Positions 1 to 54,384 of a stretch of DNA of 64,000 nt are shown one piece after another (within the stretch, counting starts at the first letter, position 1; each line of letters begins with the position of its first letter). Source of the stretch: Escherichia coli (GTDB taxonomy: Bacteria > Pseudomonadota > Gammaproteobacteria > Enterobacterales > Enterobacteriaceae); NCBI RefSeq assembly GCF_050920415.1, contig NZ_CP169309.1, one strand, 5' to 3'. Below the pieces are notes generated by a model. That model did not search any database. It was not told the origin of the DNA and worked only from the letters and a program-made list of their open reading frames with translations. A program made the position numbers and the translations under genes.

Positions 1-2337
1 GTTCCCCAGTTGGATATCCGGGTGAAAACGGACAAAACCCATTACCAGCCAGGTGAACTGGTCAATGTCGAATTAACCTCGTTGCTGAAAGGTAAACCAG
101 TTTCTGCGCAGTTAACGGTTGGCGTGGTCGATGAAATGATCTACGCACTGCAACCGGAAATCGCGCCAAATATCGGCAAATTTTTCTATCCGCTGGGGCG
201 TAACAATGTGCGTACCAGCTCCAGCCTGTCATTTATCAGCTACGACCAGGCGCTCTCCAGCGAACCTGTTGCGCCTGGCGCGACTAACCGCAGCGAGCGG
301 CGAGTGAAAATGCTGGAACGTCCACGGCGTGAAGAGGTGGATACCGCTGCCTGGATGCCGTCACTCACAACCGATAAACAAGGCAAAGCGTATTTCACGT
401 TCCTGATGCCTGATTCATTAACCCGTTGGCGCATCACCGCGCGTGGGATGAACGGCGACGGGCTGGTAGGGCAGGGGCGTGCTTATTTGCGTTCGGAAAA
501 AAATCTCTACATGAAGTGGAGTATGCCAACGGTATATCGCATGGGTGACAAACCGGCGGCAGGACTGTTTATCTTCAGTCAGCAGGATAACGAACCGGTG
601 GCGCTGGTGACTAAATTTTCAGGCGCTGAGGTGCGTCAGACGCTGACGTTGCATAAAGGGGCGAATTATATTTCGCTGACGCAGAATATTCAGCAATCTG
701 GCTTGTTAAGTGCAGAACTGCAACAAAATGGGCAAGTGCAGGACAGTATTAGCACAAAACTGTCTTTTGTGGATAACAGCTGGCCCATTGAACAGCAGAA
801 AAACGTCATGCTCGGCGGTGGCGATAACGCACTGATGTTGCCCGAGCAGGCGAGCAATATCCGGTTGCAAAGTAGCGAAACGCCGCAGGAGATTTTCCGT
901 AACAATCTTGATGCGTTAGTCGATGAACCGTGGGGTGGCGTGATCAACACCGGTAGCCGTCTGATCCCGCTCAGTCTCGCCTGGCGTTCACTTGCCGATC
1001 ATCAAAGTGCCGCCGCTAACGACATTCGTCAGAGGATTCAGGATAACCGTTTGCGGCTGATGCAACTGGCGGGGCCAGGAGCGCGCTTTACCTGGTGGGG
1101 TGAAGATGGCAATGGCGACGCATTCCTCACGGCATGGGCATGGTACGCCGACTGGCAGGCCAGCCAGGCGCTCGGCGTAACGCAACAACCGGAATACTGG
1201 CAGCATATGCTCGACAGCTACGCGGAGCAGGCGGATAACATGCCGTTATTGCATCGGGCGCTGGTGCTGGCGTGGGCGCAGGAGATGAATCTGCCGTGCA
1301 AAACGTTGTTGAAAGGGTTGGACGAAGCTATCGCCCGGCGCGGAACTAAAACTAAAGATTTCTCTGAGGCAGACACCAGCGATATCAATGACAGTCTGAT
1401 CCTCGATACACCTGAATCTCCACTGGCAGATGCGGTGGCAAACGTCTTAACCATGACGTTGCTGAAAAAAGCGCAGTTGAAGTCCACTGTGATGCCACAG
1501 GTTCAGCAGTATGCGTGGGATAAAGCAGCAAACAGTAACCAGCCGCTGGCGCACACGGTTGTGCTGCTCAATAGCGGAGGCGACACCACCCAGGCTGCCG
1601 CTATTTTAAGTGGTTTAACCGCTGAACAATCCACTATTGAGCGCGCGCTGGCAATGAACTGGCTGGCGAAATATATGGCGACGATGCCTCCGGTTACGTT
1701 ACCTGCTCCTGCGGGCGCATGGGCCAAACATAAGTTAACCGGAGTGGGTGAATACTGGCGTTGGGTTGGTCAGGGCGTGCCGGATATTCTCTCTTTTGGT
1801 GACGAATTACCGCCGCAAAACGTGCAGGTTCGCTGGCGTGAACCGGCAAAAACGGCTCAACAAAGTAACATTCCGGTGACCATTGAACGACAGTTGTATC
1901 GGCTTATCCCGGGTGAAGAAGAGATGAGCTTTACTCTGCAGCCGCTGACCAGCAATGAGATTGACAGCGATGCGCTGTATCTCGATGAAATCACGCTTAC
2001 CAGCGAGCAGGATGCAGTTCTACGCTACGGTCAGGTGGAAGTACCGCTCCCGCCGGGGGCTGACGTTGAGCGGACAACGTGGGGCATTTCGGTCAATAAA
2101 CCCAACGCCGCGAAACAGCAGGGGCAGTTGCTGGAAAAAGCGCGCAATGAAATGGGTGAACTGGCCTATATGGTGCCGGTAAAAGAACTGACGGGAACGG
2201 TCACCTTCCGCCATTTGCTGCGTTTCTCGCAAAAAGGGCAATTCGTTCTGCCTCCTGCTCGTTATGTGCGTTCCTATGCACCTGCACAGCAAAGTGTTGC
2301 GGCAGGGAGCGAATGGACCGGGATGCAGGTGAAATAA
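1..2337 (+). CDS. yfaS: Alpha-2-macroglobulin family protein YfaS, C-terminal 775+ aa (5' end outside window)
   Basis: ORF 10..2337 is in frame from nt 1; position upstream of yfaQ-yfaP-atoB matches the yfaS locus by synteny; product family recalled, not re-derived. Confidence 0.75.
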
Positions 2338-3987
2338 GTGAACTGGCGCAGAATCGTCTGGCTATTAGCGTTGGTTACTCTGCCTACGCTTGCGGAGGAG
2401 ACGCCGTTACAACTGGCGCTGCGGGGCGCGCAGCACGATCAACTGTATCAGCTGTCGTCATCAGGCGTGACCAAAGTCTCGGCATTACCTGACACACTCA
2501 CCACGCCGTTAGGGAGTTTGTGGAAACTGTATGTTTACGCCTGGCTGGAGGATACCCATCAACCAGAGCAGCCCTACCAGTGTCGCGGAAACTCCCCGGA
2601 AGAGGTTTATTGTTGTCAGGCTGGGGAGAGCATAACGCGCGATACCGCGCTGGTACGCTCCTGTGGACTCTATTTTGCGCCGCAACGGTTGCATATTGGT
2701 GCAGATGTTTGGGGGCAATACTGGCAACAGCGTCAGGCACCTGCGTGGTTAGCGTCTCTTCCGACGCTGAAGCCAGAAACCTCGGTAACGGTTAAATCGC
2801 TGCTTGATTCATTAGCGACGTTACCCGCGCAAAACAAAGCTCAGGAAATCTTACTGGATGTGGTGCTGGACGAGGCGAAAATCGGTGTCGCATCCATGCT
2901 CGGTAGTCGGGTAAGGGTAAAAACCTGGAGCTGGTTTGCCGATGATAAACAGGAAATCCGTCAGGGTGGTGTTGCCGGCTGGTTAACGGATGGTACACCG
3001 CTGTGGGTTACTGGCAGTGGCACCAGCAAAACGGTACTGACCCGTTATGCGACGGTGCTTAATCGGGTATTGCCAGTGCCGACGCAAGTTGCCAGTGGGC
3101 AATGTGTAGAGGTGGAGCTGTTTGCCCGTTATCCGCTGAAGAAAATCACGGCGGAAAAGAGTACGACAGCAGTAAAACCCGGCGTACTTAATGGGCGCTA
3201 TCGTGTGACGTTTGCCAATGGTAACCACATTACGTTTGTCAGCCACGGTGAGACGACCTTACTGACAGAAAAGGGCAAACTGAAATTGCAGTCGCATCTT
3301 GATCGTGAAGAGTACGTTGCCAGAGCACTGGATCGCGAGGCGAAAAGTACGCCCCCTGAGGCAGCGAAAGCTATGACCGTGGCGATTCGCACTTTTTTAC
3401 AGCAAAACGCCAATCGGGAAGGCGATTGCCTGACCATCCCTGACAGCAGCGCCACGCAGCGTGTTTCTGCTTCGCCAGCTACCACGGGGGCGCGAATGAT
3501 GACCGCCTGGACGCAGGATCTCATCTATGCGGGCGACCCGGTCCATTATCACGACAGTCGCGCTACCGAAGGGACGCTTTCCTGGCGGCAAGCCACCGCC
3601 CAGGCGGGGCAGGGAGAGCGTTACGACCAGATACTCGCGTTTGCTTATCCCGACAACAGCCTTAGCCGCTGGGGATCGCCACGCTCAACCTGCCAGTTAT
3701 TACCCAAAGCGAAAGCCTGGCTGGCGAAAAAAATGCCGCAGTGGCGGCGTATGTTACAAGGCGAGACGGGGTACAACGAACCAGACGTGTTTGCGGTCTG
3801 TCGTTTAGTCTCAGGTTTCCCCTATACCGATCGGCAGCAGAAACGGCTGTTTATTCGTAACTTCTTTACGCTTCAGGATCGGCTGGATTTAACCCATGAG
3901 TATCTGCACCTGGCCTTTGATGGTTATCCCACCGGGCTTGATGAGAACTATATCGAAACGCTGACCCGACAATTATTAATGGACTAA
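2338..3987 (+). CDS. yfaQ: DUF2300-family protein YfaQ (549 aa), GTG start
   Basis: 549-aa ORF immediately after yfaS stop; length and synteny match yfaQ. Confidence 0.7.
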   Translation: MNWRRIVWLLALVTLPTLAEETPLQLALRGAQHDQLYQLSSSGVTKVSALPDTLTTPLGSLWKLYVYAWLEDTHQPEQPYQCRGNSPEEVYCCQAGESITRDTALVRSCGLYFAPQRLHIGADVWGQYWQQRQAPAWLASLPTLKPETSVTVKSLLDSLATLPAQNKAQEILLDVVLDEAKIGVASMLGSRVRVKTWSWFADDKQEIRQGGVAGWLTDGTPLWVTGSGTSKTVLTRYATVLNRVLPVPTQVASGQCVEVELFARYPLKKITAEKSTTAVKPGVLNGRYRVTFANGNHITFVSHGETTLLTEKGKLKLQSHLDREEYVARALDREAKSTPPEAAKAMTVAIRTFLQQNANREGDCLTIPDSSATQRVSASPATTGARMMTAWTQDLIYAGDPVHYHDSRATEGTLSWRQATAQAGQGERYDQILAFAYPDNSLSRWGSPRSTCQLLPKAKAWLAKKMPQWRRMLQGETGYNEPDVFAVCRLVSGFPYTDRQQKRLFIRNFFTLQDRLDLTHEYLHLAFDGYPTGLDENYIETLTRQLLMD

Positions 3988-3991
3988 TGCT

Positions 3992-4768
3992 ATGCGAAAG
4001 ATTTTTCTTCCGTTGTTACTGGTGGCGCTTTCGCCTGTTGCCCATGGCGAAGGTGTGCAGGAAGTCGAGATTGATGCACCGCTCTCTGGCTGGCATCCGG
4101 CAGAGGGTGAAGATGCCAGTTTTTCACAATCGATCAATTACCCGGCGTCGTCCGTCAACATGGCAGATGATCAAAATATCTCAGCGCAGATCCGCGGCAA
4201 AATAAAGAATTATGCGGCGGCGGGTAAAGTTCAGCAGGGCCGGTTGGTGGTCAACGGTGCCAGTATGCCGCAGAGAATTGAATCCGATGGTTCATTTGCA
4301 CGCCCTTATATTTTCACTGAAGGCAGCAACAGCGTGCAGGTCATCAGCCCAGATGGGCAAAGCCGACAAAAAATGCAGTTTTACTCAACGCCGGGGGCTG
4401 GAGTGATCCGCGCGCGTTTACGGCTGGTTCTCTCGTGGGATACGGACAATACCGACCTCGATCTTCATGTTGTCACGCCGGATGGTGAACACGCCTGGTA
4501 CGGTAACACGGTGCTGAAAAACAGTGGTGCACTGGATATGGATGTCACGACGGGTTACGGACCGGAGATTTTCGCCATGCCAGCGCCAGTTCACGGGCGC
4601 TATCAGGTATATATCAACTACTATGGTGGACGCAGTGAAACGGAATTGACGACCGCCCAACTGACGCTGATCACCGATGAAGGATCGGTTAATGAGAAAC
4701 AGGAAACATTTATTGTACCGATGCGTAATGCTGGCGAACTGACGCTGGTGAAAAGTTTTGACTGGTGA
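3992..4768 (+). CDS. yfaP: DUF2135-family exported protein YfaP (258 aa)
   Basis: 258-aa ORF with N-terminal signal-like segment; synteny between yfaQ and atoB. Confidence 0.7.
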   Translation: MRKIFLPLLLVALSPVAHGEGVQEVEIDAPLSGWHPAEGEDASFSQSINYPASSVNMADDQNISAQIRGKIKNYAAAGKVQQGRLVVNGASMPQRIESDGSFARPYIFTEGSNSVQVISPDGQSRQKMQFYSTPGAGVIRARLRLVLSWDTDNTDLDLHVVTPDGEHAWYGNTVLKNSGALDMDVTTGYGPEIFAMPAPVHGRYQVYINYYGGRSETELTTAQLTLITDEGSVNEKQETFIVPMRNAGELTLVKSFDW

Positions 4769-4801
4769 TTACTGAGGTTATCTTTACTGTCAATGTTCAA
4801 G

Positions 4802-4836
4802 AAAACGCCCGATGACTTTCGCTATCGGGCGTTTTT
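4802..4836. terminator. Bidirectional rho-independent terminator between convergent yfaP and atoB
   Basis: Hairpin aaaacgcccgat...atcgggcgtttt with A/T runs on both sides. Confidence 0.55.
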
Positions 4837-4841
4837 ACATG

Positions 4842-6026
4842 TTAATTCAATCGTTCAATCACCATCGCAATTCCTTGACCGCCGCCAATGCACAACGTTG
4901 CCAGACCCAGCGTTTTATCGCGTGCCTGCATTGCATGTAATAGTGTGACCAGAATACGCGCACCGCTGGCGCCGATAGGATGCCCCAGCGCGATGGCCCC
5001 GCCGTTGACATTCACTTTCTCAGGATCAAAGCCCAGTGTTTTCCCAACGGCAAGGAATTGCGCGGCAAATGCTTCATTGGCTTCGATAAGATCAATGTCT
5101 GCCAGCTGCAGCCCCGCCAGTTGTAACGCTTTTTGCGTGGCAGGCACTGGTCCCATACCCATCAATGCGGGGGGCACGCCGCCGCTGGCATAACTTTTAA
5201 TACGTGCCAGGGGATTCAGGCCTGCTGCCAGCGCCGCGGATTCTTCCATAATCACCAGAGCGGCAGCACCGTCGTTAATACCTGACGCGTTCCCGGCGGT
5301 GACAGTACCTGCTTTATCGAAGGCCGGACGCAATGCAGCCAGAGCTTCTGTAGTAGAATCTGGTTTCGGGAATTCGTCTTGACTGAAGACGAGGGTTTTC
5401 TTCCGGGTGACAACATTTACCGGGACGATTTCGGCTGTAAAAGCACCGGACTCAATTGCGGCAACCGCTTTACGCTGTGAATGTAGCGCCAGTTCATCCT
5501 GCATTTCGCGGGTAATCCCGTACTCCTTAGCCACGTTTTCGGCGGTAATTCCCATATGATAACCATGGGTGGCGCACATCAGGCCATCGCGCAGGATTAC
5601 GTCATAAACCTGTCCGTCTCCCAGACGATAACCCGATCGCGCTTTTGCATCGAGTAAGTAGGGCGCTAAACTCATATTTTCCATACCCCCCGCCACAATG
5701 CTCTGCGCCTGACCTGCCTGAATTGCCTGGGCGGCAAGCGCCACGCTTTTCAGACCCGAACCACACACCTTATTGACCGTGAATCCGCACACCGTTTCGG
5801 CCAGTCCGCTTTTTAACAGTGCCTGACGCGCCGGATTTTGCCCCAGCCCGGCTTGCAACACGTTACCCATAATCACTTCATCGATATGTTGTGAATCGAT
5901 TTTTGCGCGTTCAATAGCGGCCTGAATTACTGTTGCTCCCAGATCGATGGCGCTGGTGGAGGCGAGTGAACCATTAAAACTACCGATGGCAGTACGTACC
6001 GCACTGACGATGACACAATTTTTCAT
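4842..6026 (-). CDS. atoB: Acetyl-CoA acetyltransferase (thiolase II)
   Basis: 394-aa ORF; thiolase sequence recognised ([17 protein letters not shown]...). Confidence 0.95.
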
Positions 6027-15114: not shown

Positions 15115-15300
<186 letters not shown>

Positions 15301-18957: not shown

Positions 18958-19051
18958 AAAAAAAAACCGGATGCGAGGCATCCGGTTGAAATAGGGGTAA
19001 ACAGACATTCAGAAATGAATGACGGTAATAAATAAAGTTAATGATGATAGC
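18958..19051 (-). ncRNA. micF: micF antisense sRNA
   Basis: Reverse complement matches the micF sequence as I recall it (GCTATCATCATTAACTTT...CCGGATGCCTCGCATCCGGTTTTTTTT); divergent from ompC. Confidence 0.8.
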
Positions 19052-19370
19052 GGGAGATATTCTAGTTGCGAGTGAAGGTTTTGTTTTGACATTCAGTGCT
19101 GTCAAATACTTAAGAATAAGTTATTGATTTTAACCTTGAATTATTATTGCTTGATGTTAGGTGCTTATTTCGCCATTCCGCAATAATCTTAAAAAGTTCC
19201 CTTGTATTTACATTCTGAAACATCTATAGCGATAAATGAAACATCTTAAAAGTTTTAGTATCATATTCGTGTTGGATTATTCTGCATTTTTGGGGAGAAT
19301 GGACTTGCCGACTGATTAATGAGGGTTAATCAGTATGCAGTGGCATAAAAAAGCAAATAAAGGCATATAA

Positions 19371-27034: not shown

Positions 27035-27280
27035 CCACATCCGGCATGTTATGCCGGATGTGGCGTATGCTGATAAGACGCGCCAGCGTCGCATCAGTCA
27101 ACCGGCTTGGGCGTTAGATGTCGGATGCGGCGTGACCGCCTTATCCGACCTACGGGGTGGAGCACTTCACAGCGGTGTAGGCCTGATAAGACGCGCCAGC
27201 GTCGCATCAGGCAACCGGCTCGGGCGTTGGATGTCGGATGCGGCGTGACCGCCTTATCCGACCTACGGGGTGCCGCACTT
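27035..27280. repeat. REP/BIME cluster between convergent mqo and eco
   Basis: Two ~100-bp near-identical units (ctgataagacgcgccagcgtcgcatcag...gatgtcggatgcggcgtgaccgccttatccgacctacggggtg). Confidence 0.65.
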
Positions 27281-27289: not shown

Positions 27290-27778
27290 TTAGCGGACTA
27301 CCGCGTTGTCAATTTTCTCTTCCGCCTTCCAGATGCGGTATTTCACATCTACATTGTCTGGCGTATACACCACGATAGGCAGCTTGCTGTTGTAACGCAG
27401 CATTCCGGCATCGCCCAGATACGCGGTGACAAATTTCTTCTCTTTCTTGCCATCCGGGCAGGCCATCATCGTGGAAACCGGCGAGCTAACTTTATCAAAG
27501 ACGTAATAATCATAGCCCCAGCCTTCCAGCGTTTTGCTTTCCAGCTTCCCGCCGAGACGATGCAAATTGCAATCGACTTCCAGCGTCTGACCGATTAACA
27601 GTTCTACTTTCAGGGTAGATTCATCTTCTTGCGGGGTTAACTGAATCACCTGACGCTTCATGCCTTTTTCAGCTTGCGGATAAGGCGCGATTTTTTCCAG
27701 TGGCTGGACGCTCTCTGCCGCCCAGGCGGAAGTGGTAGCGAAAGCGGCAAACAATACTGCAGGTAGAATGGTCTTCAT
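27290..27778 (-). CDS. eco: Ecotin (serine protease inhibitor)
   Basis: 162-aa ORF with signal peptide; ecotin sequence recognised. Confidence 0.9.
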
Positions 27779-40512: not shown

Positions 40513-41745
<1,233 letters not shown>

Positions 41746-42781: not shown

Positions 42782-45376
42782 ATGCATCACTCTGGTTCTG
42801 TTTCTCTTTGTCGTTCCGCAATATCTGTTCTGGTGGCTACAGCGTTATATTCTCCCATAGCATTGGCATCAACTGTTGAGTATGGAACGACTGTTGATGG
42901 TGTTGTCCTGGAAAAAGATATCCAGCTGGTTTATGGGACCGCAAATAATACGAAAATCACTCCCAGCGGAGAACAGCATATAAAAGAATGTGGTGTAAGT
43001 AATAATGCTGAAATAAACGGAGGGTATCAGTACATTGAAGCATATGGCTCAGCAGAATACTCAGTATTAAATGATGGTTATCAAATTGTTCAATTGGGTG
43101 GTGCAGCAAACCAAACTACCATCAATAATGGTGTGTTACAGGTTTATGGAGCTGCTAATGAAGCCACTATTAAAGGCGGGCGCTTACTCGTTGAAACCGA
43201 AGGCATTGCCATCTTCGCCGTTATCGAAAAGGGAGGACTACTGGAGGTTAAAGATGGCGGATTGGCATTTGCGGTAGATCAAAAAGCAGGCGGTGCAATC
43301 AAAACAACCACGCGGGTTATGGAGGTATTCGGAACAAATCGTCTCGGTCAGTTTGATATCAAAGATGGGGTTGCTAACAATATGCTGTTGGAAAACGGCG
43401 GAAGTTTGCGGGTTGAAGAGAATGACTTCGCTTATAATACCACTGTGGATAGTGGTGGTTTACTGGAGGTTATGGATGGCGGGACTGCAACTGGCGTTGA
43501 CAAAAAAGCAGGCGGAAAATTAATTGTTTCAACGAATGCGCTGGAAGTGAGTGGTACAAACAGTAAAGGCCAATTTAGCATAAAAGATGGCGTGTCTAAA
43601 AATTATGAACTAGATGACGGTTCCGGGCTAATTGTTATGGAGGGCACTCAGGCAATTGACACTATCCTTGATGAGCATGCAACCATGCAATCGTTGGGAA
43701 GAGATACTGGTACGAGAGTGCAGGCACATGCAGTTTATGATCTTGGTCGGTCAGTGCAGAATGGAAGCATAAAATATTCCTCAAATGCTATATCTGAAAA
43801 TATGGTTATCGATAATGGTCGCGCTAATGTCTGGACTGGCACAATGGTTAACGTAACAGTCAGAGGAAATGAGGGCATTATTGATGCAATGGCGCTGGAA
43901 TTAAATTTTTATACACCGGCTACATTATTAGGTGACGTGGTGGTTTCTGATGGTGCATCTTTAAGAACGCATGGCGCAGTGGATACCAGTAAAGCAGATG
44001 TTTCTATCGAAGAGAGTTTTTGGGCTATTATTGCCGATATCAATAATATAAACCAAAACACCCGTCTCAATTTAGCAAACCTGGTGATGTCAGACGGAAC
44101 TGTCGTTATGATGGCTGAGCCAGTGACTCGTTCATCTGTGACGGCAAGTGCGGAAAATTTCACTACATTGACCACTAATACCCTGTCGGGAAACGGCAAT
44201 TTTTATATGCGCACCGATATGGCCAATCACCAGAGCGATCAGCTTAACGTCACCGATCAGGCAACAGGTAATTTCAAAATCTTCGTTACGGACACCGGTG
44301 CCAGCCCGGCAGCAGGAGATAGCCTTACACTGGTAACAACGGGCGGCGGTGATGCTGCATTTACCTTGGGCAATGCCGGAGGCGTTGTTGATATCGGTAC
44401 GTATGAATATATCTTGCAAGATAATGGCAACCATAGCTGGAGTCTGGCAGAGAATCGCACGCAAATAACTCCTTCAACCACTGATGTGTTGAATATGGCG
44501 GCAGCACAACCGCTGGTATTTGATGCAGAACTGGATACCGTACGTGAGCGTCTTGGTAGCGTAAAAGGCGTTAATTACGATACGGCGATGTGGAGTTCGG
44601 CAATTAACACCCGCAACAACGTAACCACTGATGCGGGAGCTGGCTTTGAGCAAACATTGACGGGGCTGACGCTCGGTATCGATAGCCGTTTCTCCCGTGA
44701 AGAAAGCAGCACAATTCGTGGCTTATTCTTTGGTTACTCTCATTCTGATATTGGTTTTGATCGCGGCGGTAAAGGCAATGTCGATAGCTATACCCTGGGG
44801 GCTTATGCCGGTTGGGAGCATCAGAACGGTGCCTATGTTGATGGGGTGGTGAAAGTTGACCGTTTTTCCAACACCATCCATGGCAAGATGAGTAATGGGG
44901 CAACAGCGTTTGGCGATTACAATAGTAACGGCGCGGGTGCTCATGTCGAGAGCGGGTTCCGTTGGGGGGAGGGGTTGTGGAATGTAAGGCCTTATCTGTC
45001 CTTTACCGGCTTTACCACTGATGGTCAGGACTATACGTTATCAAATGGTATGCGAGCGGATGTGGGAAATACCCGCATATTACGCGCTGAAGCGGGAACG
45101 GCGGTAAGCTATCACATGGACCTGCAAAACGGTACGACGCTGGAACCCTGGCTGAAAGCCGCCGTGCGTCAGGAATACGCCGATTCTAACCAGGTGAATG
45201 TTAATGACGACGGCAAATTTAATAATGACGTGGCTGGAACCCGTGGCGTTTATCAGGCTGGGATAAGGTCATCGTTTACCCCGACGTTAAGCGGTCATTT
45301 GTCAGTCAGCTATGGCAATGGCGCGGGGGTAGAATCACCGTGGAATACCCAGGCGGGTGTGGTCTGGACGTTCTGA
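42782..45376 (+). CDS. yejO: Autotransporter YejO, apparently intact (864 aa)
   Basis: 864-aa ORF with signal peptide, repetitive passenger region and C-terminal beta-barrel ending ...VVWTF. Confidence 0.8.
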   Translation: MHHSGSVSLCRSAISVLVATALYSPIALASTVEYGTTVDGVVLEKDIQLVYGTANNTKITPSGEQHIKECGVSNNAEINGGYQYIEAYGSAEYSVLNDGYQIVQLGGAANQTTINNGVLQVYGAANEATIKGGRLLVETEGIAIFAVIEKGGLLEVKDGGLAFAVDQKAGGAIKTTTRVMEVFGTNRLGQFDIKDGVANNMLLENGGSLRVEENDFAYNTTVDSGGLLEVMDGGTATGVDKKAGGKLIVSTNALEVSGTNSKGQFSIKDGVSKNYELDDGSGLIVMEGTQAIDTILDEHATMQSLGRDTGTRVQAHAVYDLGRSVQNGSIKYSSNAISENMVIDNGRANVWTGTMVNVTVRGNEGIIDAMALELNFYTPATLLGDVVVSDGASLRTHGAVDTSKADVSIEESFWAIIADINNINQNTRLNLANLVMSDGTVVMMAEPVTRSSVTASAENFTTLTTNTLSGNGNFYMRTDMANHQSDQLNVTDQATGNFKIFVTDTGASPAAGDSLTLVTTGGGDAAFTLGNAGGVVDIGTYEYILQDNGNHSWSLAENRTQITPSTTDVLNMAAAQPLVFDAELDTVRERLGSVKGVNYDTAMWSSAINTRNNVTTDAGAGFEQTLTGLTLGIDSRFSREESSTIRGLFFGYSHSDIGFDRGGKGNVDSYTLGAYAGWEHQNGAYVDGVVKVDRFSNTIHGKMSNGATAFGDYNSNGAGAHVESGFRWGEGLWNVRPYLSFTGFTTDGQDYTLSNGMRADVGNTRILRAEAGTAVSYHMDLQNGTTLEPWLKAAVRQEYADSNQVNVNDDGKFNNDVAGTRGVYQAGIRSSFTPTLSGHLSVSYGNGAGVESPWNTQAGVVWTF

Positions 45377-45897: not shown

Positions 45898-46035
45898 ACC
45901 GTCTTTTTGTCACGTCGTGTCACTGGTTGTCACTCTCCGTCACGATCTCCGATAGCCTGGCTGCAAATTAAACTACGAAAATTTCGTAGTTCTGACTTCT
46001 TTCAGATAGTCGGTTGCCTGGTTACACGAAAAAAA

Positions 46036-46407
46036 TTACTTCCTGCGTTTATCCCGCTTTGTATGTCCGTGCTGAATGCCCCGCAGTGGATCTTCTTTTT
46101 TCAGGTCGATCCCCATGTCCGTTAGTGTTTTTGTGGCGGCGGTTCTTATGGCACAAATCAGGTCTCTTTCCGGTTCCCGGGTTATGGTTGCCTTCCGGAT
46201 ACATGCCGTTCGTCGTTCCGTTACATACTGACGCGCTTCATCACTTGCCGCCTGTTTCAGTAACTCACCCCAGCGATTAGCCGCCCGTCGCCATAAACCT
46301 TTCGCTTCCAGTTCTTCCGCTTTGTCATCATGCACCATAAGCATAATCCCATTGATACCTGTTAAATCTGAATGGTTGGTTTCCGTTCTTTTGATAATTT
46401 CCCTCAT
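46036..46407 (-). CDS. Hypothetical protein, possibly PerC-family transcriptional activator-like
   Basis: 123-aa ORF with LEAKGLWRRAANRWGELL motif reminiscent of PerC-type activators; start may be an internal Met. Confidence 0.4.
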   Translation of the reverse strand: MREIIKRTETNHSDLTGINGIMLMVHDDKAEELEAKGLWRRAANRWGELLKQAASDEARQYVTERRTACIRKATITREPERDLICAIRTAATKTLTDMGIDLKKEDPLRGIQHGHTKRDKRRK

Positions 46408-46450
46408 AGCTTATTGTATGACAGTACTGTCCCACAATAAGGAATCACAC

Positions 46451-46750
46451 ATGAGAATGACCAGGCACAAAAAACAGATTCTTGAACTTTACAAACCTGA
46501 GTATCGCGATTGGGTGCGGGTGGAGGCCGGAGATCCGCCTTTTGATGTTCGTGGTGTGACAGTGCTGCTCTATGGTTCCGAATATCAGCGATATCACATA
46601 GAGGCAACCCGACGAACGTTAAACGCTATGGTAAATGATGGGATCCTGTACCGCGTGAAAGTGCGCGAACCCCGCTTTGATGTGCGTATCGGTAGCGATG
46701 GCGCTCACTGTACGGTAATCCGGTACGGGCTGGGTAAATCAGATGATTAA
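46451..46750 (+). CDS. Hypothetical protein (99 aa)
   Basis: Start chosen at ATG 46451 preceded by AAGGA RBS (ORF track extends upstream to 46322); no recognisable domain. Confidence 0.45.
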   Translation: MRMTRHKKQILELYKPEYRDWVRVEAGDPPFDVRGVTVLLYGSEYQRYHIEATRRTLNAMVNDGILYRVKVREPRFDVRIGSDGAHCTVIRYGLGKSDD

Positions 46751-46873
46751 ATCACCAGAATGTAAATTTACATTCTGCCAGCCACCAGCTACAGAACGCA
46801 AATTTGCACTTTGCTGAAATATTAACGGGTTAGGCCAGAGTGCAAATTTGCATTATGCTTTAACTTCAGCAAG

Positions 46874-47155
46874 TTACCGCCGTAACCGCTCCGGCTTCTT
46901 CCACTGGTACGTTATTTTGGCTTTTTCCCTGTACGTCTGTATCCGGCGACGGTAGGCCAGCATTTCAAGAACGCGGATCCGTATGTCGCGCATATCCGCA
47001 TCATTAAGCTGGATACCATCACGGTGCATCACCTCAGCAACCACACGAACATAATTTTCTGCGGTCACGCTGTCCGGCTGCGTGGCCTGTTCGTCAGCCT
47101 GCTGGTTGATTCCGGCGACGCGGCGGATTAATCGCAGTAGTTCGGTTTCTGTCAT
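46874..47155 (-). CDS. Hypothetical protein (93 aa)
   Basis: ORF just downstream of the capsid-gene terminator; no recognisable domain. Confidence 0.4.
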   Translation of the reverse strand: MTETELLRLIRRVAGINQQADEQATQPDSVTAENYVRVVAEVMHRDGIQLNDADMRDIRIRVLEMLAYRRRIQTYREKAKITYQWKKPERLRR

Positions 47156-47315
47156 TGTGCCCCCATCGCGCTGGTTAAGAAAACAAGCTCAGATTTTTTG
47201 TAAAGAATCTGTCACGCTAAAAGATGTCGAACAAAAAACAACCTTCTCCATCATCTTTTTTGCATCGATTACATTAAAAACAACAGGTTACATACATGAT
47301 GATGATGACGATAAA

Positions 47316-47412
47316 ATCACAAAAATGCGCTTTTTTCCGCGCCCGCCCGCCCCGTGTTCATACCCACCCCACCAGGAGGACCCGCAAAAAAGGCGGCTGG
47401 TGCCGCCTTGTT
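47316..47412 (-). repeat. Repeated non-coding element, copy A: terminator hairpin plus GC box
   Basis: Shares a ~38-bp near-identical core (aaaaatgcgc(t/c)tttttccgcgcccgcccgccccgtg) and similar downstream architecture with copy B. Confidence 0.6.
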
Positions 47413-47413
47413 G

Positions 47414-49303
47414 TCATAGTGAATCGGTACCGCCTGATTTGACCATACCGCGATAATCCAGAGCGGCCACACCAGCATCAATACGGACTTTCCAGGCCAC
47501 ACCGTCAACGATGAAACCTTCCTGCTGTTCAAGGTAAGGCTCGTCATTGCCATCAAGATAAGCCACCTCGATTGTGTCCGTTCCCTGTGCGGAAAGCATG
47601 TACCATTGTTTTTCGCTGATATCATCAAGGCGGGGATCGACGATAATATCCAGTAGTTTGTGATACGGGTTAAAGATCCCGCTGTTTTTATCTGCCCCGA
47701 AAGGTGCGGTTGAGTTAATCATCTGCAACGCGCGATCTTCCAGTGCTGCCGGAACTAAAAGGAATTTAGGCGCAATATTCAGCACTTCGCCATTTTTGTC
47801 CTTCTGTGTGCGCATCAGGTGACGTGCTGCACTAAGTCCCGGTGTTGTCAGTCCTGCTTCAATCAGGTTGCTGTGTTTTTTGTCAAACAGCGCTATTCCA
47901 TCAGAAAGTTTTACGTTGCCTGTAAGCACCAGATTAACCAGATTTCCCACCGTTCTTGATGCTGCACGGCCCATAGCCATTGGCACCGTTGATAACTGAT
48001 CAAGGTCATCATTGATTATCGCCTGGCGGGTAATGCTGAAAATATTCCCGTAAGTAGCCAGCGCGATGGGTTCACCGCGATCGCTGGTGGTGATGTATTT
48101 ATATTCTGCCCCTTCCGGCACTTTGTTTAACGTAGAGAAACCATTCAGACCAACGCGGCGGGCTTCACGAAAGTTTGAAAGGGAACCTTTTTTCGTCCAC
48201 TGGCGGAATGTTTCGCCGCTGTGCTCCCAGCCTGCAAGCACTGATTTTTCAGCACCACCAGCAAGGATATCGGTAAAATCGCTGCTGCTGTGGTTGAATG
48301 CCGCGTTTACTATCTGCGAGCGTGTTCCGTAGCTGCCCGTGCTTATACCACGATGGGTTAATGATGCCTGTGCCATATCGAAAAGGCTCATCATGGCGTA
48401 AGGATTACCGCGTTCGGCCCGTTCGTGACCAAGACGCGCATTAAGCCCCTGGCGCATTGCATCGCCGGTTATGTTGCCGTTATCCGTGTACGCGTAGTAA
48501 AGATTTGCGGGGGTGGTTTTATTTGTTGGCGTTGATTCTTTACCCATAGCGAGTAAAAGGCGTTCGCGTGCATTCTCAACGCTACATTCTGAATCAGCAA
48601 GACAACTTATAGCCAGGTCGTTATATCTTCCGTTGAACGTGCCAAACAATTCACGGATGCCGTTAAGTCGTTCCTGTTCGCCACTGCCAGTTTTCTGGCT
48701 GATCATGCTTTTAATTTTTTCCGGCATATTTGAAAAATCTCCGATTCGTTTTGATTCAATTCGGGCCATTGCTGTAATCGCGGGTATAACCTCATCTGCG
48801 AAGCCGTTAGCCTTACACTCATTGCCATCCATCCAGGTTTCCGCCTCCATCATGGCGGTGATTTCCTGTTTGCTCCTGCCCGTTCTTCCGGCGTAGGTTT
48901 CAGCCATCGTGTCGCCCAGCTTGTCCATCAGGTCAGCAAAGCGGCGAACGTCGCCCGACACTCCGGCAGTAACACCACGGGGGGCATGTATCATCATCAT
49001 TGCGTTTTCAGGCATAACGATGTGATCGCCACACATGGCAATAAACGAGGCCATAGAAGCCGCCATGCCTTCAATGTGTACAATTTTCTTTGCCGGATGA
49101 TTTTTCAGGGCGTTATAGATAGCCAGCCCTTCAAAGATGTCGCCACCAGGTGAATGGATGCGAAGATGGATTTCAGACGCATTACCACACGCGTTGATCT
49201 CGTCAGTAAGTGCCGATGCTTTTACACCGTACCCGCCGATCTCGTCATAAATGCGCACATAGACAACATCTGCCATAGCCTTAATGGAAAACCATGTTTT
49301 CAT
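47414..49303 (-). CDS. Prohead protease (ClpP/S14-like) fused to a capsid-like C-terminal domain
   Basis: 629-aa ORF: N-terminal ~180 aa has ClpP-like motifs (GMAASMAS, MMIHAP); C-terminal ~350 aa reads as an HK97-fold major capsid protein, assigned by impression only. Confidence 0.75.
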   Translation of the reverse strand: MKTWFSIKAMADVVYVRIYDEIGGYGVKASALTDEINACGNASEIHLRIHSPGGDIFEGLAIYNALKNHPAKKIVHIEGMAASMASFIAMCGDHIVMPENAMMMIHAPRGVTAGVSGDVRRFADLMDKLGDTMAETYAGRTGRSKQEITAMMEAETWMDGNECKANGFADEVIPAITAMARIESKRIGDFSNMPEKIKSMISQKTGSGEQERLNGIRELFGTFNGRYNDLAISCLADSECSVENARERLLLAMGKESTPTNKTTPANLYYAYTDNGNITGDAMRQGLNARLGHERAERGNPYAMMSLFDMAQASLTHRGISTGSYGTRSQIVNAAFNHSSSDFTDILAGGAEKSVLAGWEHSGETFRQWTKKGSLSNFREARRVGLNGFSTLNKVPEGAEYKYITTSDRGEPIALATYGNIFSITRQAIINDDLDQLSTVPMAMGRAASRTVGNLVNLVLTGNVKLSDGIALFDKKHSNLIEAGLTTPGLSAARHLMRTQKDKNGEVLNIAPKFLLVPAALEDRALQMINSTAPFGADKNSGIFNPYHKLLDIIVDPRLDDISEKQWYMLSAQGTDTIEVAYLDGNDEPYLEQQEGFIVDGVAWKVRIDAGVAALDYRGMVKSGGTDSL

Positions 49304-49494
49304 AGCCAGGCTCCTAACGTTGCCCTGTACCAGTATTCAACCGCGCTGCGTGTGATTTGTCCTTTCGTGGGTACCGGCATACCCGGGTGATTGTCTTTGA
49401 TGAACTGCTGATAGCGTTCGATCTTCTCCATAGTTCCGGCGTCTATGTGTACCGTGGCACTTTTATCCGGCTTTCTGGTGTTGTTCTCTGGCAT
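49300..49494 (-). CDS. Hypothetical small protein coupled to the protease-capsid gene
   Basis: ORF 49300..49527; internal ATG at 49494 has a strong GGAGG RBS; stop overlaps capsid ATG (ATGA). Confidence 0.45.
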   Translation of the reverse strand: MPENNTRKPDKSATVHIDAGTMEKIERYQQFIKDNHPGMPVPTKGQITRSAVEYWYRATLGAWL

Positions 49495-49854
49495 AAATCC
49501 GCCTCCGTTTTGATTAACGGGCATCATTATTGATCGATAAAAGTAATAGATAAATCATTTTCTACCTGAAAATTAGATTATATTTTTTCTGATTATTCTC
49601 AGAGAGGCAAAGCCATTGACGCATTTTTGCTATTGAAGCAATATTAAGACTCGTCATCCTGGCGATAAAAACTCCTTTGTCGTGTAAAAGCGCCTCCGGT
49701 AACAGCAATCGAGGGCGCTTTTTTTTGCGCCTGTTTTTTTGTAAATGTTTTCGGGAACGCTCCAGTGATGAACAAAAAACAACCTGATTCGACACTAAAA
49801 ATTTTTATTCCTCAATATATCAATAACTTATAGTGGTGGTGATGGTGCCATAAA

Positions 49855-49952
49855 AATCAAAAAATGCGCCTTTTTCCGCGCCCGCCCGCCCCGTGGACAG
49901 GCCCACCAAGCCAGGAGTACCTACAAAAAAGCCGGATTGCTCCGGCTGTGTG
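49855..49952 (-). repeat. Repeated non-coding element, copy B
   Basis: See copy A; hairpin gccggattgctccggc plus GC box. Confidence 0.6.
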
Positions 49953-49965
49953 CTCACTTCTTCGG

Positions 49966-50217
49966 TTATTCTCCAGCGCTTTTAACGTTGATGGTTGTAA
50001 CCTGTTCCGCTTCGGCAATCTCCCATTCTGTCAGCGTGGCAAAGTTTGCCGCCGCTGTGGTCATGAATGCGCTTATCAGGTCGGGATGTGCTTTCGCGTA
50101 TCCTTCCCCCGTGTTGCGGTCGATGATTTTTATCGCCACTCTCAGCCAGTGCTCTGTAAGGTCAATGGCGCGGTTATGCTGCTTCTTCTGATTATTAAGT
50201 TTTCCTGATGTGCGCAT
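49966..50217 (-). CDS. Hypothetical protein (83 aa)
   Basis: ORF between the iteron array and repeat copy B; G-rich RBS-like sequence upstream. Confidence 0.4.
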   Translation of the reverse strand: MRTSGKLNNQKKQHNRAIDLTEHWLRVAIKIIDRNTGEGYAKAHPDLISAFMTTAAANFATLTEWEIAEAEQVTTINVKSAGE

Positions 50218-50249
50218 TTTTATTTTTACCCCCTCGTTTAAAAAGTTTT

Positions 50250-50500
50250 GAGTTGTGCCTCCCCTTGTCTACCTTATCTACCTTACTGGCCACCATGCCA
50301 GTAATGGCGCGGCTTTCAGTGGGGTAGAGTGCTTTTATCCACTATCTACCCCGTATCTACCTCCCTGTCTGATTCAGGTAAAATCAGGTAGAGAGGGTAG
50401 ATAGTAGGTAGACAGTAAAAAAAGGCTGTCTACCCAAGTTAATGTACTGAATTAAATGTATTTTTCTTTACTCAGGTAGACAGGGTAGACAGCCATTGCA
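50250..50500. repeat. Iteron array, putative replication origin
   Basis: At least 11 copies of GGTAGA/TCTACC in both orientations within ~250 bp, just 3' of the replication gene. Confidence 0.55.
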
Positions 50501-50505
50501 ACAAA

Positions 50506-52254
50506 TTATAAAAACGCGTCGCAATCGTCTGTTGTTATTGCGTTAGTCTGCGTTACTCCTTTAACTTTCCGCGTAATATATTCATGTCCGTAAACTTTCG
50601 CGGCTGGCTTCATAGCCTTGCCAAAGTCATTTACGTTTAGCGGTTTGCTCCTGCCTGCGTACGCCATAAACGCCAGATAGACGCGGTAAAGGCTGTTTCT
50701 GGTCGTGTACTTCACTGAATCGCCACCGCCGCCCATCATCAGGCCGCGTGCTTCCTCCAGAAAATTCAGGAACTGGCAAAACTCAATAACCGGATCCGTC
50801 TGTTGCTTTATTGCCAGTGCTTCATCACCGTCACGCTGTTCAATGAGTAAAGCCCGTGCCTTTTCAGGGTCGGCAAAGTTCGCCAGCAAGCGGCGGATAA
50901 TGACAGGGATTTCAGCCGCGATCTTTTCCGGTAGCTCCCTGTCTTTTTCTGCCTCGCTTACGATGTTATCGAACCGGAATATCACCCGACGACGTGCCAC
51001 ACCTCCGGCCCGTTCGGTGAATATCATCGGATTGTTATTGGTTGCCAGCACCACCGCCCTGATTACCGCCGTAAAACGCTTTTCATATTTCGGGTTAATT
51101 TCCACGGGGTCGCCGCCCGTGATTTTCTTGATGCCCGTTCCTTCGCCTGTATATTTCTGCTGGTCTGCCAGGACGATAAGACGACTCCCGACAACCTGCG
51201 CACGCCCACCAGCATCATCAAGCGATGTCATTTCAGCGCTTACCGTGTTTTGTTTCCCTGCCAGAAGGCTGGCTATGTGTGTGAATGTACTTTTACCGCT
51301 CCCGCCGTCTCCGGTGGCCTCAATAAACATCTGCCAGTCGTACCGGTTCGCCATAATCATGTACAGCGCGGCACATATACGCATCATCTTGCTCGGGTCT
51401 TTTCCGGCTGCGTGCTCAAGCCATTTATGAAAGTTTGGCGCGTTATCGCGGATGTTCTCCCCGGGTGCTGGTGGCGTGTACTCAATGCCGTTGTGCGTGG
51501 TGATCCAGTTCTCCGGCGTGTGCGGGGAAAATTCCCCCGTTTTCAGGTCAAGCGCACCATTGGCGAACGGCAGCAAATCGCCGGACGGCTCGCCCATTGG
51601 TTCGGCAATAACTTTTAACGCTTCCACGGCGTTATTGATTACGCGCTTGCTGAAAGTGGCCCTGTGCTCTGAATAGATAGCCACCATTTCGCGGCTCAGC
51701 TCCATTGTGCTGACCGGACACCATACCCCGCCGCGCCATACGTGAACGATTTCACTTTCAGGATGCACACAAACGCCATCAAAGCGCTCGGCAAGCAGCT
51801 GCGCGCGCTCACTGTCTGCCATTTGTGCCAGTTGCGTATTTTTCTGCTCCGGCATGGTAAGCCCTGCGGCAATATTTTCACGCTCAGCATTCAGATAGCG
51901 CCGCCAGTTTTCACACTTCTGGACGTGCATTCCTTCGGGGTAAAAATTTGCGTCCTGAATATCTGCCGCCGCCAGCTTCTGACCAATCTTTTTGGTCTCC
52001 ACCAAATCCAGTTCTCCGGCCTGGTACAGCCTTACGCGCTTTTTCCCATCCGGAACAATTTTCAGTGCATCAAGTTCGGCAAGCTGATTTGGCCCAAGCC
52101 ACACAGGCGGCACATTATCGCCGGATGCGGGGCCATCCTGCTCCTGCCATTGTTTCGCGTGCGACCAGGCATCACTACCCGCGAAAATAATTACCTCTGT
52201 GTCTTTGTGTTTTATTCCGCGTGGCTGTTTTTTTACGTTCGGTGCCAGTTTCAT
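50506..52254 (-). CDS. Replication protein: NTPase/helicase-like with Walker A motif (primase-helicase-like)
   Basis: 582-aa ORF with Walker A GDGGSGKST and a putative Walker B (LIVLAD); SF3/D5/P4-alpha-type assignment is by impression. Confidence 0.75.
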   Translation of the reverse strand: MKLAPNVKKQPRGIKHKDTEVIIFAGSDAWSHAKQWQEQDGPASGDNVPPVWLGPNQLAELDALKIVPDGKKRVRLYQAGELDLVETKKIGQKLAAADIQDANFYPEGMHVQKCENWRRYLNAERENIAAGLTMPEQKNTQLAQMADSERAQLLAERFDGVCVHPESEIVHVWRGGVWCPVSTMELSREMVAIYSEHRATFSKRVINNAVEALKVIAEPMGEPSGDLLPFANGALDLKTGEFSPHTPENWITTHNGIEYTPPAPGENIRDNAPNFHKWLEHAAGKDPSKMMRICAALYMIMANRYDWQMFIEATGDGGSGKSTFTHIASLLAGKQNTVSAEMTSLDDAGGRAQVVGSRLIVLADQQKYTGEGTGIKKITGGDPVEINPKYEKRFTAVIRAVVLATNNNPMIFTERAGGVARRRVIFRFDNIVSEAEKDRELPEKIAAEIPVIIRRLLANFADPEKARALLIEQRDGDEALAIKQQTDPVIEFCQFLNFLEEARGLMMGGGGDSVKYTTRNSLYRVYLAFMAYAGRSKPLNVNDFGKAMKPAAKVYGHEYITRKVKGVTQTNAITTDDCDAFL

Positions 52255-52550
52255 TTTTTACCCCTGAATACGTTAAGCATCTTTTTTATTTCCTGAATAT
52301 TGGCGCGTGCTTTCTCCCTGCTGGTTGGTTTACTGCGGGGCGCTGCCTGTACCAGAGAAAAATCACGCCGAAACTGATAAACAGGCATCACGCAATCATA
52401 TTCGTAGCCTTCACGACGGTAGGTGATGCGCCGTTCTGCCACGCCTTTAATCGTTACCATGCCGCCATATTTATCGCGGTAAATATCGCCGCGCGTAAAT
52501 TTAGGGTGAGTGTTGCCACTAGCAGTTAAGCCAGAAATTTTCTTTTTCAT
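52251..52550 (-). CDS. Hypothetical protein (99 aa), coupled to the replication gene
   Basis: Stop overlaps replication-gene start; basic protein. Confidence 0.45.
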   Translation of the reverse strand: MKKKISGLTASGNTHPKFTRGDIYRDKYGGMVTIKGVAERRITYRREGYEYDCVMPVYQFRRDFSLVQAAPRSKPTSREKARANIQEIKKMLNVFRGKK

Positions 52551-52566
52551 GGTTTTTATTCCGCGT

Positions 52567-52782
52567 TTATTTTTTATCGTGAATTTCGATCGCTTTATTT
52601 AATTCGGTGATTACCGTATCGAGTAATGAAATAAACGCACCAGCAAGATTAGATTCACGTTCACCTTCCGGCGCATCACTTAAACCATCAAGCCAGATAA
52701 GCAATATTTGCCGCAAGCATTCACTGTTAGTCAGTGCGTTTTCTGCATGGCTCATTAATTTAAAATAACGGTCATCATGCAT
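52567..52782 (-). CDS. Hypothetical protein (~71 aa)
   Basis: ORF 52567..52827; internal ATG at 52782 has AAGGGG RBS and sits 2 nt after the upstream gene's stop. Confidence 0.4.
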   Translation of the reverse strand: MHDDRYFKLMSHAENALTNSECLRQILLIWLDGLSDAPEGERESNLAGAFISLLDTVITELNKAIEIHDKK

Positions 52783-53011
52783 GGTGCGCCCCTTGAATAT
52801 CTGCGGTAAGAATTTTGCCTGCCTCATTCAGCGCCATATCAGCACTAAGTTGCATAACCGCCAGCGAATGAGGAACGAAAGCCCCTGCATATTCTGTTTC
52901 ACTGGTGGCGTGCTTATGCGCCATGTCAGCAATAACAGAAATATCAATAAGCGCATCCATCAGCGTTTTGATGGCTTCGGCGGCTGCGTCCGGACGGGGG
53001 TTATTGCACAT
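52775..53011 (-). CDS. Hypothetical protein (78 aa), first gene of the replication operon
   Basis: Strong GGAGG RBS 6-7 nt upstream of ATG; faces the divergent operator region. Confidence 0.45.
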   Translation of the reverse strand: MCNNPRPDAAAEAIKTLMDALIDISVIADMAHKHATSETEYAGAFVPHSLAVMQLSADMALNEAGKILTADIQGAHHA

Positions 53012-53289
53012 GGCGCACCTCCTGACGAATACGGGCGGCGAATACCATCACGCAGCCAGCCGGGGATTGCTGGCGGGCTTCCTGTTCGCTGGTGGCCTCG
53101 ATGGTAATCACGCGCGGTTGTGCCGTGCTCAGGGCGATAAAACGCCAGATGTATTTATTCAGGTTGTGCGAATCCCGCCCTTGCGGGTGTGTGGTATGAT
53201 TTCTCATAGCTGCCTCGATACTCTTTCTATCGTTGGTGGTTAGACGCCCTGCATGTGTGCCACCACTGCGGGGCGTTGCGTTTTTTGAT

Positions 53290-53347
53290 GCACACGTGTT
53301 AAGGTGTACACCTACAAAGCAAAAACATAACGCCATAGGTGTACACA
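53290..53347. promoter_or_regulatory. Operator cluster in the divergent control region
   Basis: Palindromes ACACGTGT (53293), GGTGTACACC (53303..53312) and AGGTGTACAC (53338..53346, overlapping the RBS of the plus-strand gene). Confidence 0.5.
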
Positions 53348-53541
53348 TGTCAACAGTTATTAAGCGCGATAAAAAACAAAAAGGCACAGGAAAGACCCCA
53401 CCGTTCCATATGCGTATAGTTCCTGAATTGAAGGAGCAGTTTGATAACGAAGCCAGTAACGATGGAGTAAGTCTTGCCAACTGGCTTAAAGAGTTGGGGC
53501 GCGCCGAACTAAAGCGACGCGGCATTGAACCTAAAGGCTGA
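53347..53541 (+). CDS. Small DNA-binding regulator, putative ribbon-helix-helix (64 aa)
   Basis: ATG with AGGTG RBS; HMRIVPELKEQF strand-like then helical DGVSLANWLKELGRAEL suggests RHH (assigned by impression); divergent from the replication operon. Confidence 0.45.
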   Translation: MSTVIKRDKKQKGTGKTPPFHMRIVPELKEQFDNEASNDGVSLANWLKELGRAELKRRGIEPKG

Positions 53542-53544
53542 TGT

Positions 53545-53664
53545 ATGACCGATAACAAACTTTCTCTAACAGAGAATAAACCATCAGGCTTCTTACCAAG
53601 AAAAATCCTTGATGAGATCAAACGCCGCCAGCGTAAAAAATCCAAAGGAGCAGACACGGAATAG
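53545..53664 (+). CDS. Hypothetical basic peptide (39 aa)
   Basis: Short ORF 3 nt after the upstream stop; below the ORF-track length cutoff. Confidence 0.2.
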   Translation: MTDNKLSLTENKPSGFLPRKILDEIKRRQRKKSKGADTE

Positions 53665-53667
53665 CTT

Positions 53668-53832
53668 ATGCAACAAATACCATACTGGCTTGGCTCTCTG
53701 TTTGTATTTGCATTTCTCATGAAATATTGCATTAGCAATGAACTTGTCGGTAATGAAAGTGCATGCGCGAGCGCTGAAAAAAATATTCCACTTCTCGTAT
53801 ATGAAAACGAAAGCCCTGTGAACCGCAATTGA
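53668..53832 (+). CDS. Hypothetical small membrane peptide (54 aa)
   Basis: ATG 3 nt after the upstream stop; hydrophobic N-terminus (YWLGSLFVFAFLM) then polar tail. Confidence 0.25.
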   Translation: MQQIPYWLGSLFVFAFLMKYCISNELVGNESACASAEKNIPLLVYENESPVNRN

Positions 53833-54108
53833 GCGAAATTTAATGAATTCACTCTTTGCCCACCAGCCGCAAATGTGGCATTGTTGGCGATGCTCATGCG
53901 TTGGGGATAACGTGTAGCTTGTGTCGAAGGGCCATCGTGACAGGTGGCCTTTTCTTTACCTGTTATCTGGCAATTGTGGCGCTTCGTCACACGGTTGATA
54001 TAATTCCCCTGCACTGATCCATTTTTTTCGCAGCAGGTTAATTGTTCGCAAGGGCGCTCCGGCAACGGGGCGCTTTTTGTTATGTTCATCACGTTACGCC
54101 TCACACCA

Positions 54109-54315: not shown

Positions 54316-54384
54316 TATGTTTTACCTCGTTAATCCGGCGTATTCCGGTGATAAATACGGTAAAACAGGGCAGGGCGGGAAAAA

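Follow-up and report, generated by a model that had tools for sequence, protein, structure and literature searches.

The Escherichia coli gene yfaS, which encodes an alpha-2-macroglobulin (A2M)-like protein, is annotated as a pseudogene in K-12, and the question raised by the 64,000-nucleotide stretch of E. coli DNA analysed here (assembly GCF_050920415.1, contig NZ_CP169309.1; referred to throughout as the window) is whether the yfaS frame with which it opens belongs to an intact gene and, if so, what type of macroglobulin it encodes. We conclude with considerable confidence that positions 1-2337 are the 3' half of an intact and selectively maintained yfaS of wild-type E. coli.

An uninterrupted yfaS frame at the start of the window

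1-2337, plus strand: yfaS, C-terminal 778 codons and TAA (open frame; 100% identity to NZ_CP169399.1, where the gene is annotated as intact; Pfam A2M and bMG10; AlphaFold model)

Frame +1 runs through 778 sense codons without interruption, from the first base of the window up to the TAA at 2335-2337, and the open reading frame (ORF) list of the window reports 10-2337, 775 residues counted from the first TTG. The initial annotation described yfaS as one continuous frame of at least 775 codons with its 5' end outside the window, and both points are borne out, with 2268 nt of the gene lying upstream; the visible part, which it took to be the C-terminal two-thirds, is in fact the C-terminal half, codons 757-1534 of 1534 (51% of the gene). 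At the base composition of the segment (GC 0.541, with a per-codon stop probability of 0.0437), 778 consecutive open codons would arise by chance with a probability of about 8e-16; stops number between 18 and 51 in the other five frames, and GC contents of 0.60/0.43/0.59 at the three codon positions are typical of coding sequence. The translation contains the Pfam domains A2M and bMG10. Other features of 1-2337 are confined to minus-strand ORFs of at most 90 residues; there is no Rfam match in this segment, and promoter-like and terminator-like signals within it are at or below shuffle expectation. Synteny (yfaS-yfaQ-yfaP-atoB), together with 95% DNA identity to K-12 b4500, identifies the predicted gene as yfaS.

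The K-12 lesion lies within the visible segment

1834-1836, plus strand: TGG (Trp), window codon 612 and full-length codon 1368; TGA in K-12 (alignment with K-12)

The yfaS gene of K-12 MG1655 (b4500) is annotated in NC_000913.3 as a pseudogene of 4605 nt, which older annotation split into b2227 and b2228. Relative to the intact allele it is of the same length, lacks any indel, and is 95.1% identical in nucleotide sequence with 37 amino acid differences. Its frame contains a single internal stop, a TGG to TGA change at codon 1368, because of which the gene is annotated as a pseudogene. The initial annotation, in which K-12 yfaS is split into two fragments, is right as to the gene being broken; a frameshift, as two fragments would lead one to expect, is ruled out by the indel-free alignment with its one in-frame TGA. 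The continuity of the frame in the window is informative about the K-12 defect because the lesion codon falls inside the visible part, where it reads TGG, and the K-12-type pseudogene allele is thus absent from the window. This, with the synteny, the DNA identity to b4500 and the lack of indels, supports the earlier suggestion of an intact macroglobulin-like gene. The K-12 product would end at 1367 residues, losing the last 167 and with them the whole of bMG10 (Pfam, 1410-1517), and a 1367-residue protein is the Escherichia representative, P0121, in our library of 50%-identity clusters.

The upstream half of yfaS in the nearest genome

The closest match to the window is MFDS1022581 (NZ_CP169399.1), which is 100% identical over 1-2337, differs by two single-nucleotide polymorphisms over the first 40.9 kb, and has the same yfa operon with the same neighbors. 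In this genome yfaS is an uninterrupted frame of 1534 codons from the K-12-type ATG, the upstream 756 codons being open, and it is annotated as an intact 'alpha-2-macroglobulin family protein' (WP_000536575.1). The K-12-type ATG is preceded by AAGGA, a ribosome-binding site, and overlaps the 3' end of yfaT by 67 nt. The RefSeq/PGAP coding sequence starts instead at a GTG 30 codons past this ATG (positions 5733-5823 of locus L001), in the middle of a hydrophobic signal-like segment, and is probably too short, removing the export signal. The product of the ATG start has a signal-peptide-like N-terminus with an AxA site before DD, and the IAAC found there also fits a lipobox pattern.

Distribution of yfaS alleles and selection

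Segment 1-2337 is found by megablast in 5378 of 5426 complete E. coli genomes, and yfaS is present at 80% or more of its length in 5362. The K-12 63-mer surrounding the TGA stop occurs exactly in 364 of the 5426 genomes and its TGG version in 1405. Among the matches listed, K-12 laboratory derivatives account for nearly all genomes with the TGA allele, joined by at least one non-laboratory isolate, ECONIH5. ECONIH5 (NZ_CP026202.1; 5.1 Mb) carries the K-12 TGA allele, annotated as 'internal stop', and it seems that the mutation predates or exists outside laboratory K-12. Intact alleles are present in E2348/69, B and O111:H8. In a spread sample of 60 records there are two non-K-12 frame-breaking match lengths, both confirmed as frameshifted, and one insertion sequence (IS) insertion: yfaS is annotated as frameshifted in O157:H7 Z1834 (+1 nt) and in TUM9757 (-1 nt), with first stops at codons 1075 and 1034, and is interrupted by IS421 in strain ES3. 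The annotation of Z1834 (NZ_CP062702.1) lists as pseudogenes yfaS, with a frameshift, and also yfaQ, with an internal stop. The norm for E. coli is an intact yfaS, an ordinary condition that the annotations of thousands of genomes already record, and the K-12 state is an exception specific to that lineage.

Over the 1534 codons the window-type and K-12 alleles differ by 0.20 synonymous substitutions per site (dS) and 0.011 nonsynonymous substitutions per site (dN), a dN/dS of 0.053 that is in line with those of yfaA, yfaT, yfaQ, yfaP, and the gyrA-flanking and ato genes. The gene is under strong purifying selection and is constrained, not drifting.

Domain architecture and predicted structure

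142-318, plus strand: predicted disordered segment, residues 48-106, between A2M_BRD and A2M, candidate bait (predicted local distance difference test, pLDDT, below 50)
343-591, plus strand: Pfam A2M (macroglobulin) domain, residues 115-197 (E=1.6e-12)
883-1674, plus strand: all-helical homolog of the thioester domain (TED), residues 295-558 (model secondary structure; fold matches to A2M, C3 and TEP)
1960-2283, plus strand: bacterial A2M MG10 domain, residues 654-761, absent from the truncated K-12 product (Pfam bMG10; model beta region 574-778)

The identical full-length allele has the Pfam architecture MG2, (MG4), A2M_BRD (661-806), A2M (871-953) and bMG10 (1410-1517). The 778 window residues were modeled with AlphaFold using 33 homologs; the model is confident (pLDDT 82.9, predicted TM-score 0.78) and consists of beta-sandwich domains, a disordered loop (residues 48-106), an all-helical domain (295-558) and, at the C-terminus, a beta domain (574-778). 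The top Foldseek matches in the PDB are native ECAM (5a42) and Salmonella A2M (4u48/4u4j), with E of about 1e-30 and TMq of 0.57-0.59, followed by human A2ML1, CD109, A2M and C5, and by TEP1; the protease-activated forms of ECAM match worse (TMq 0.38-0.39). A sequence search of the PDB returns a marginal C5 match only, and no solved close relative or Type II structure is found there by sequence.

The disordered loop is a candidate for the bait region, a position suggested by the MagD cleavage products 2-821 and 882-1495 (PMC5764988). Its variable core at about residues 81-100 has a top-residue frequency of 0.52, and conservation within the C-terminal half is highest in the flanks at residues 41-80 (0.84-0.87). 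This conservation hints at a specific processing event or a partner contact.

Relationship of YfaS to MagD and ECAM

YfaS has several of the features by which the Type II (MagD/YfaS) class of bacterial macroglobulins is recognized. Its architecture is that of an A2M (MG2, A2M_BRD, A2M, bMG10), with a fold that places it alongside ECAM, Sa-A2M, A2ML1, CD109 and C5; CXEQ is absent, with GGVIN at the homologous position; and the gene lies in a mag-type operon with DUF2138, DUF1175/MagC, DUF2300 and DUF2135/YfaP_C genes, pbpC being located beside yfhM elsewhere. A Sec signal peptide lacking a lipobox, as in a soluble periplasmic protein held by a partner, is a further mark of the class, and the N-terminus encoded in MFDS1022581 has both the AxA site and the lipobox-like IAAC; bait cleavage with non-covalent trapping, and complexes with MagB-type partners, are known only for MagD. 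The features of Type I (ECAM/YfhM and Sa-A2M) are lacking, in that GGVIN stands opposite GCLEQ and yfaS has yfaT and yfaQ as neighbors, not pbpC. By these features YfaS is assigned to the Type II (MagD-class) alpha-2-macroglobulins, with a degenerate thioester site.

MagD of Pseudomonas aeruginosa (PA4489) is of the same family and size, and both proteins lack the thioester Cys. The operon partners also correspond, DUF2138 to MagB, DUF1175 to MagC (Pfam MagC), DUF2300 to MagE and DUF2135 to MagF (PMC3735191, PMC5764988), although the E. coli operon has five genes with no separate magA upstream of the DUF2138 gene. The MagD-like Pseudomonas sequences keep Glu-Gln (GGVEQ) where YfaS has GGVIN, and MagD is without any Cys, whereas YfaS has Cys25 and Cys27 in the signal region and Cys1189. 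Over the window part YfaS is 47-49% identical to Pseudomonas relatives, MagD itself being outside this alignment. ECAM/YfhM and Sa-A2M (PDB 5a42, 4ziq, 4rtd, 4u48) share the overall fold, provide the best structural matches and have an alignable thioester neighborhood, but are only about 16% identical to YfaS when aligned by structure and 22% identical over the best BLASTP segment. ECAM has CLEQ and an adjacent pbpC at a different locus, neither of which is found with YfaS, and a lipoprotein anchor that YfaS probably lacks.

Loss of the thioester site in YfaS and its retention in relatives

928-951, plus strand: degenerate thioester site PWGGVINT, residues 310-317 (full-length 1066-1073), aligned to ECAM PYGCLEQT and the family consensus PYGCVEQT

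A BLASTP comparison with the E. coli Type I paralog YfhM/ECAM aligns the thioester-site stretch of YfaS to that of ECAM (PYGCLEQTASGLFP), and the register is confirmed by the family alignment. None of the Cys, Glu and Gln of CxEQ is preserved, the site reading GGVIN in place of GCxEQ, and CxEQ does not occur anywhere in the 1534 residues of YfaS. The sequence thus rules out a covalent thioester mechanism.

A different picture is seen among the relatives. GC[VIA]EQ is present in 26 of the 34 family members in the alignment, and the 45 closest 50%-identity cluster representatives divide into 36 that keep CxEQ and nine that have lost the Cys in various ways (GGVEQ, GSAEQ, HSLEQ, GTVEQ and others); the Escherichia representative is the only one of the 45 in which Glu and Gln are lost as well. 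The closest non-Escherichia representative bears CxEQ, is full-length at 1541 residues and 47% identical, and lies in a mag/yfa-type operon, and all five of the CxEQ relatives checked for context (loci L006, L007, L014, L015 and L017) are in operons of the DUF2138-MagC-A2M-DUF2300-YfaP_C type. Type II macroglobulins of mag operons have been described as a class without CXEQ; the retention of CxEQ in most mag-operon macroglobulins qualifies this generalization, which is repeated in the MagD literature. One scenario, which we put forward tentatively, is that loss of the thioester is a derived minority state that has arisen repeatedly, with covalent and non-covalent trapping coexisting in one operon-defined family. 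If this were true, comparing YfaS with its CxEQ-bearing relatives would be a natural way to learn what the thioester adds.

All four metagenomic CxEQ relatives from one protein search whose contigs were examined have an A2M gene that is predicted as a pair of ORFs, with 344-474 residues in the N-terminal piece and about 1070-1150 in the C-terminal piece:

L006, 6839-11408: two-ORF A2M relative
L007, 6539-11207: two-ORF A2M relative
L014, 6803-11222: two-ORF A2M relative
L015, 6852-11447: two-ORF A2M relative

A programmed frameshift in the CxEQ relatives was considered and rejected, in that the two break points examined differ (at about residues 365 and 475) and are simple frame changes. The two-ORF calls probably reflect a selection bias, the longest protein in that search being 1362 residues, and full-length relatives appear among the 50%-identity cluster representatives.

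A proposed role for YfaS

MagD that is cut in its bait region stably retains the protease in vitro despite the missing thioester (PMC5764988). It forms complexes with MagA, MagB and MagF, of which MagB anchors and stabilizes it at the inner membrane (PMC5764988, PMC3735191), and magD protects P. aeruginosa against the peptidoglycan-targeting type VI secretion system (T6SS) effectors VgrG3 and Tae1, the authors of that study questioning a role as a protease inhibitor (PMC12663445). By analogy, we infer that YfaS may share a MagD-like role in periplasmic non-covalent trapping and envelope defense. A plausible sequence of events is that YfaS would be exported to the periplasm and tethered to the inner membrane by YfaA, a DUF2138 protein with a MagB-like hydrophobic anchor at its N-terminus, and would there serve as a non-covalent trap for enzymes reaching the periplasm. 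Cleavage of the bait would induce a conformational change by which the attacker is caged without a thioester bond, and the envelope could thereby be protected against hydrolases of the host or of competitors.

Several points weigh against an intact, MagD-like YfaS. The 5' 2268 nt lie outside the window, so that the case for a complete, unbroken gene depends on a near-identical genome instead of the source, and the window departs from that genome after 40.9 kb (IS621 differs by a 1-nt indel, and another island occupies 47-54 kb). A literature search found no experiment on E. coli YfaS, and the mechanism is transferred from a homolog whose relatives in the alignment are only about 47-49% identical to the window part; MagD moreover retains the Glu-Gln that YfaS has lost, and mechanistic details may differ. 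The physiological target of the A2M class is itself still unclear (PMC12663445).

The alternative that fares best, which we regard as possible although doubtful, is that YfaS is functional but that protease inhibition is not its main job, the protein instead forming with YfaA, YfaT, YfaQ and YfaP an envelope-defense or repair complex directed against peptidoglycan-degrading effectors (e.g. those of T6SS), or acting on the cell wall. The protection by MagD against VgrG3 and Tae1, and the questioning of its inhibitor role (PMC12663445), speak for this, as do the matches of two partners to peptidoglycan-related folds, weak in YfaQ (SpoIID-like) and sub-threshold in YfaT (NlpC/P60-like), and the conserved flanks of the bait loop, which suit a dedicated processing step or partner more than a bait of broad specificity. 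Against it, bait cleavage and protease retention have been shown for MagD in vitro (PMC5764988), and the SpoIID and NlpC/P60 matches are marginal (23.6 and 20.1 bits, with a cutoff of 23).

It is very improbable that yfaS has an intact frame but is a decaying relic, in which the thioester residues and macroglobulin function have been lost and stops have not yet accumulated. In favor of a relic, no other family representative examined has so degenerate a thioester site (GGVIN, as compared with GCxEQ in 36 of the 45 close representatives), K-12 and its relatives survive with a truncated yfaS, and a literature search found no phenotype for the E. coli gene; yet a dN/dS of 0.053 at a dS of 0.20 over 1534 codons indicates a constraint like that of the gyrA-flanking and ato genes, 5362 of 5426 genomes keep yfaS at nearly its full length, along with each of the four partner genes, and a Cys-less MagD still traps a protease (PMC5764988). 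That the source yfaS is a pseudogene unlike that of K-12, broken by a frameshift, stop or IS in the unseen 5' 2268 nt, can be given equally little credence: independent lesions do exist (Z1834, TUM9757 and ES3) and the window genome is not the same as MFDS1022581, but the latter has no differences over 1-2337, two in 40.9 kb and an open 5' half, the non-K-12 records of the spread sample yielded only two frame-breaking match lengths and one IS insertion (stops being checked in these records alone), and the Z1834 and TUM9757 frameshifts may be assembly errors.

A maintained, MagD-class YfaS also has a practical implication, in that K-12 is a natural mutant for the central component of the operon and results obtained with K-12 cannot address YfaS function. 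Suitable backgrounds are wild strains, the source of the window among them, or K-12 after repair of TGA to TGG.

The yfa operon and its neighbors

2338-3987, plus strand: yfaQ, 549 residues, tandem DUF2300, MagE-type; GTG start directly adjoining the stop codon of yfaS (TAAGTG) (ORF, Pfam)
3992-4768, plus strand: yfaP, 258 residues, DUF2135/YfaP_C, MagF-type; last gene of the operon (ORF, Pfam)
4801-4836, no strand assigned: GC-rich 14-bp hairpin with A-run and U-run flanks (RNA fold -25.4 kcal/mol, z = -3.7, 0/200 shuffles as stable)
4842-6026, minus strand: atoB thiolase, convergent (ORF, Pfam)

The gene order in MFDS1022581 is gyrA, yfaA (DUF2138), yfaT (DUF1175), the A2M gene, yfaQ and yfaP, followed by atoB on the opposite strand, such that yfaS is the third gene of a tightly packed five-gene operon, yfaA-yfaT-yfaS-yfaQ-yfaP, which corresponds to magBCDEF of P. 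aeruginosa. YfaA has an N-terminal hydrophobic segment, the SpoIID-like Pfam match of YfaQ just exceeds its cutoff and the NlpC/P60-like match of YfaT falls below it, and NCBIfam has no model for YfaS, YfaT or YfaQ. The hairpin at 4801-4836 is likely a bidirectional intrinsic terminator between the convergent yfaP and atoB genes. A role of the operon in anti-phage defense was considered and set aside, PADLOC giving zero matches for all five of its proteins.

Other features of the window

15221-15297 and 27068-27263: naRNA4 (REP-like), four Rfam matches (gathering score) spread over three sites, downstream of rcsC and close to eco
18959-19052, minus strand: MicF small RNA upstream of ompC (Rfam, gathering score)
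27290-27778, minus strand: eco (ecotin), a periplasmic inhibitor of proteases; distance to the yfa operon about 25 kb
40561-41541, minus strand: IS621 (IS110 family), between ccmH and narP
42782-45376, plus strand: yejO, intact 864-residue AIDA/pertactin-type autotransporter
46036-46407: PerC-family regulator of the island
47414-49303: 628-residue island protein in which a ClpP-like protease is fused to a major capsid protein
50506-52254: D5-type primase of the island
54830-56089: integrase of the island
60084-60109, minus strand: L25 ribosomal-protein leader upstream of rplY (Rfam, gathering score)

Among these features we note that eco and the yfa operon lie in one window, without evidence of a functional link. 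K-12 yejO is an IS-interrupted pseudogene, and yejO may be a second gene that is intact in the window but broken in K-12. Relative to MFDS1022581, IS621 in the window has a 1-nt deletion (CCCGGG to CCCGG at about 40937) by which its 326-residue transposase is frameshifted after about residue 200, leaving a 217-residue ORF with only the DEDD_Tnp_IS110 domain; the deletion may be a true inactivation or may stem from an error in sequencing. A satellite-like or cryptic-prophage island at about 46000-56370 is integrated beside tRNA-Pro (56293-56366), and as compared with the island at the same site in MFDS1022581 it has about 90% identity or no match over 47-54 kb.

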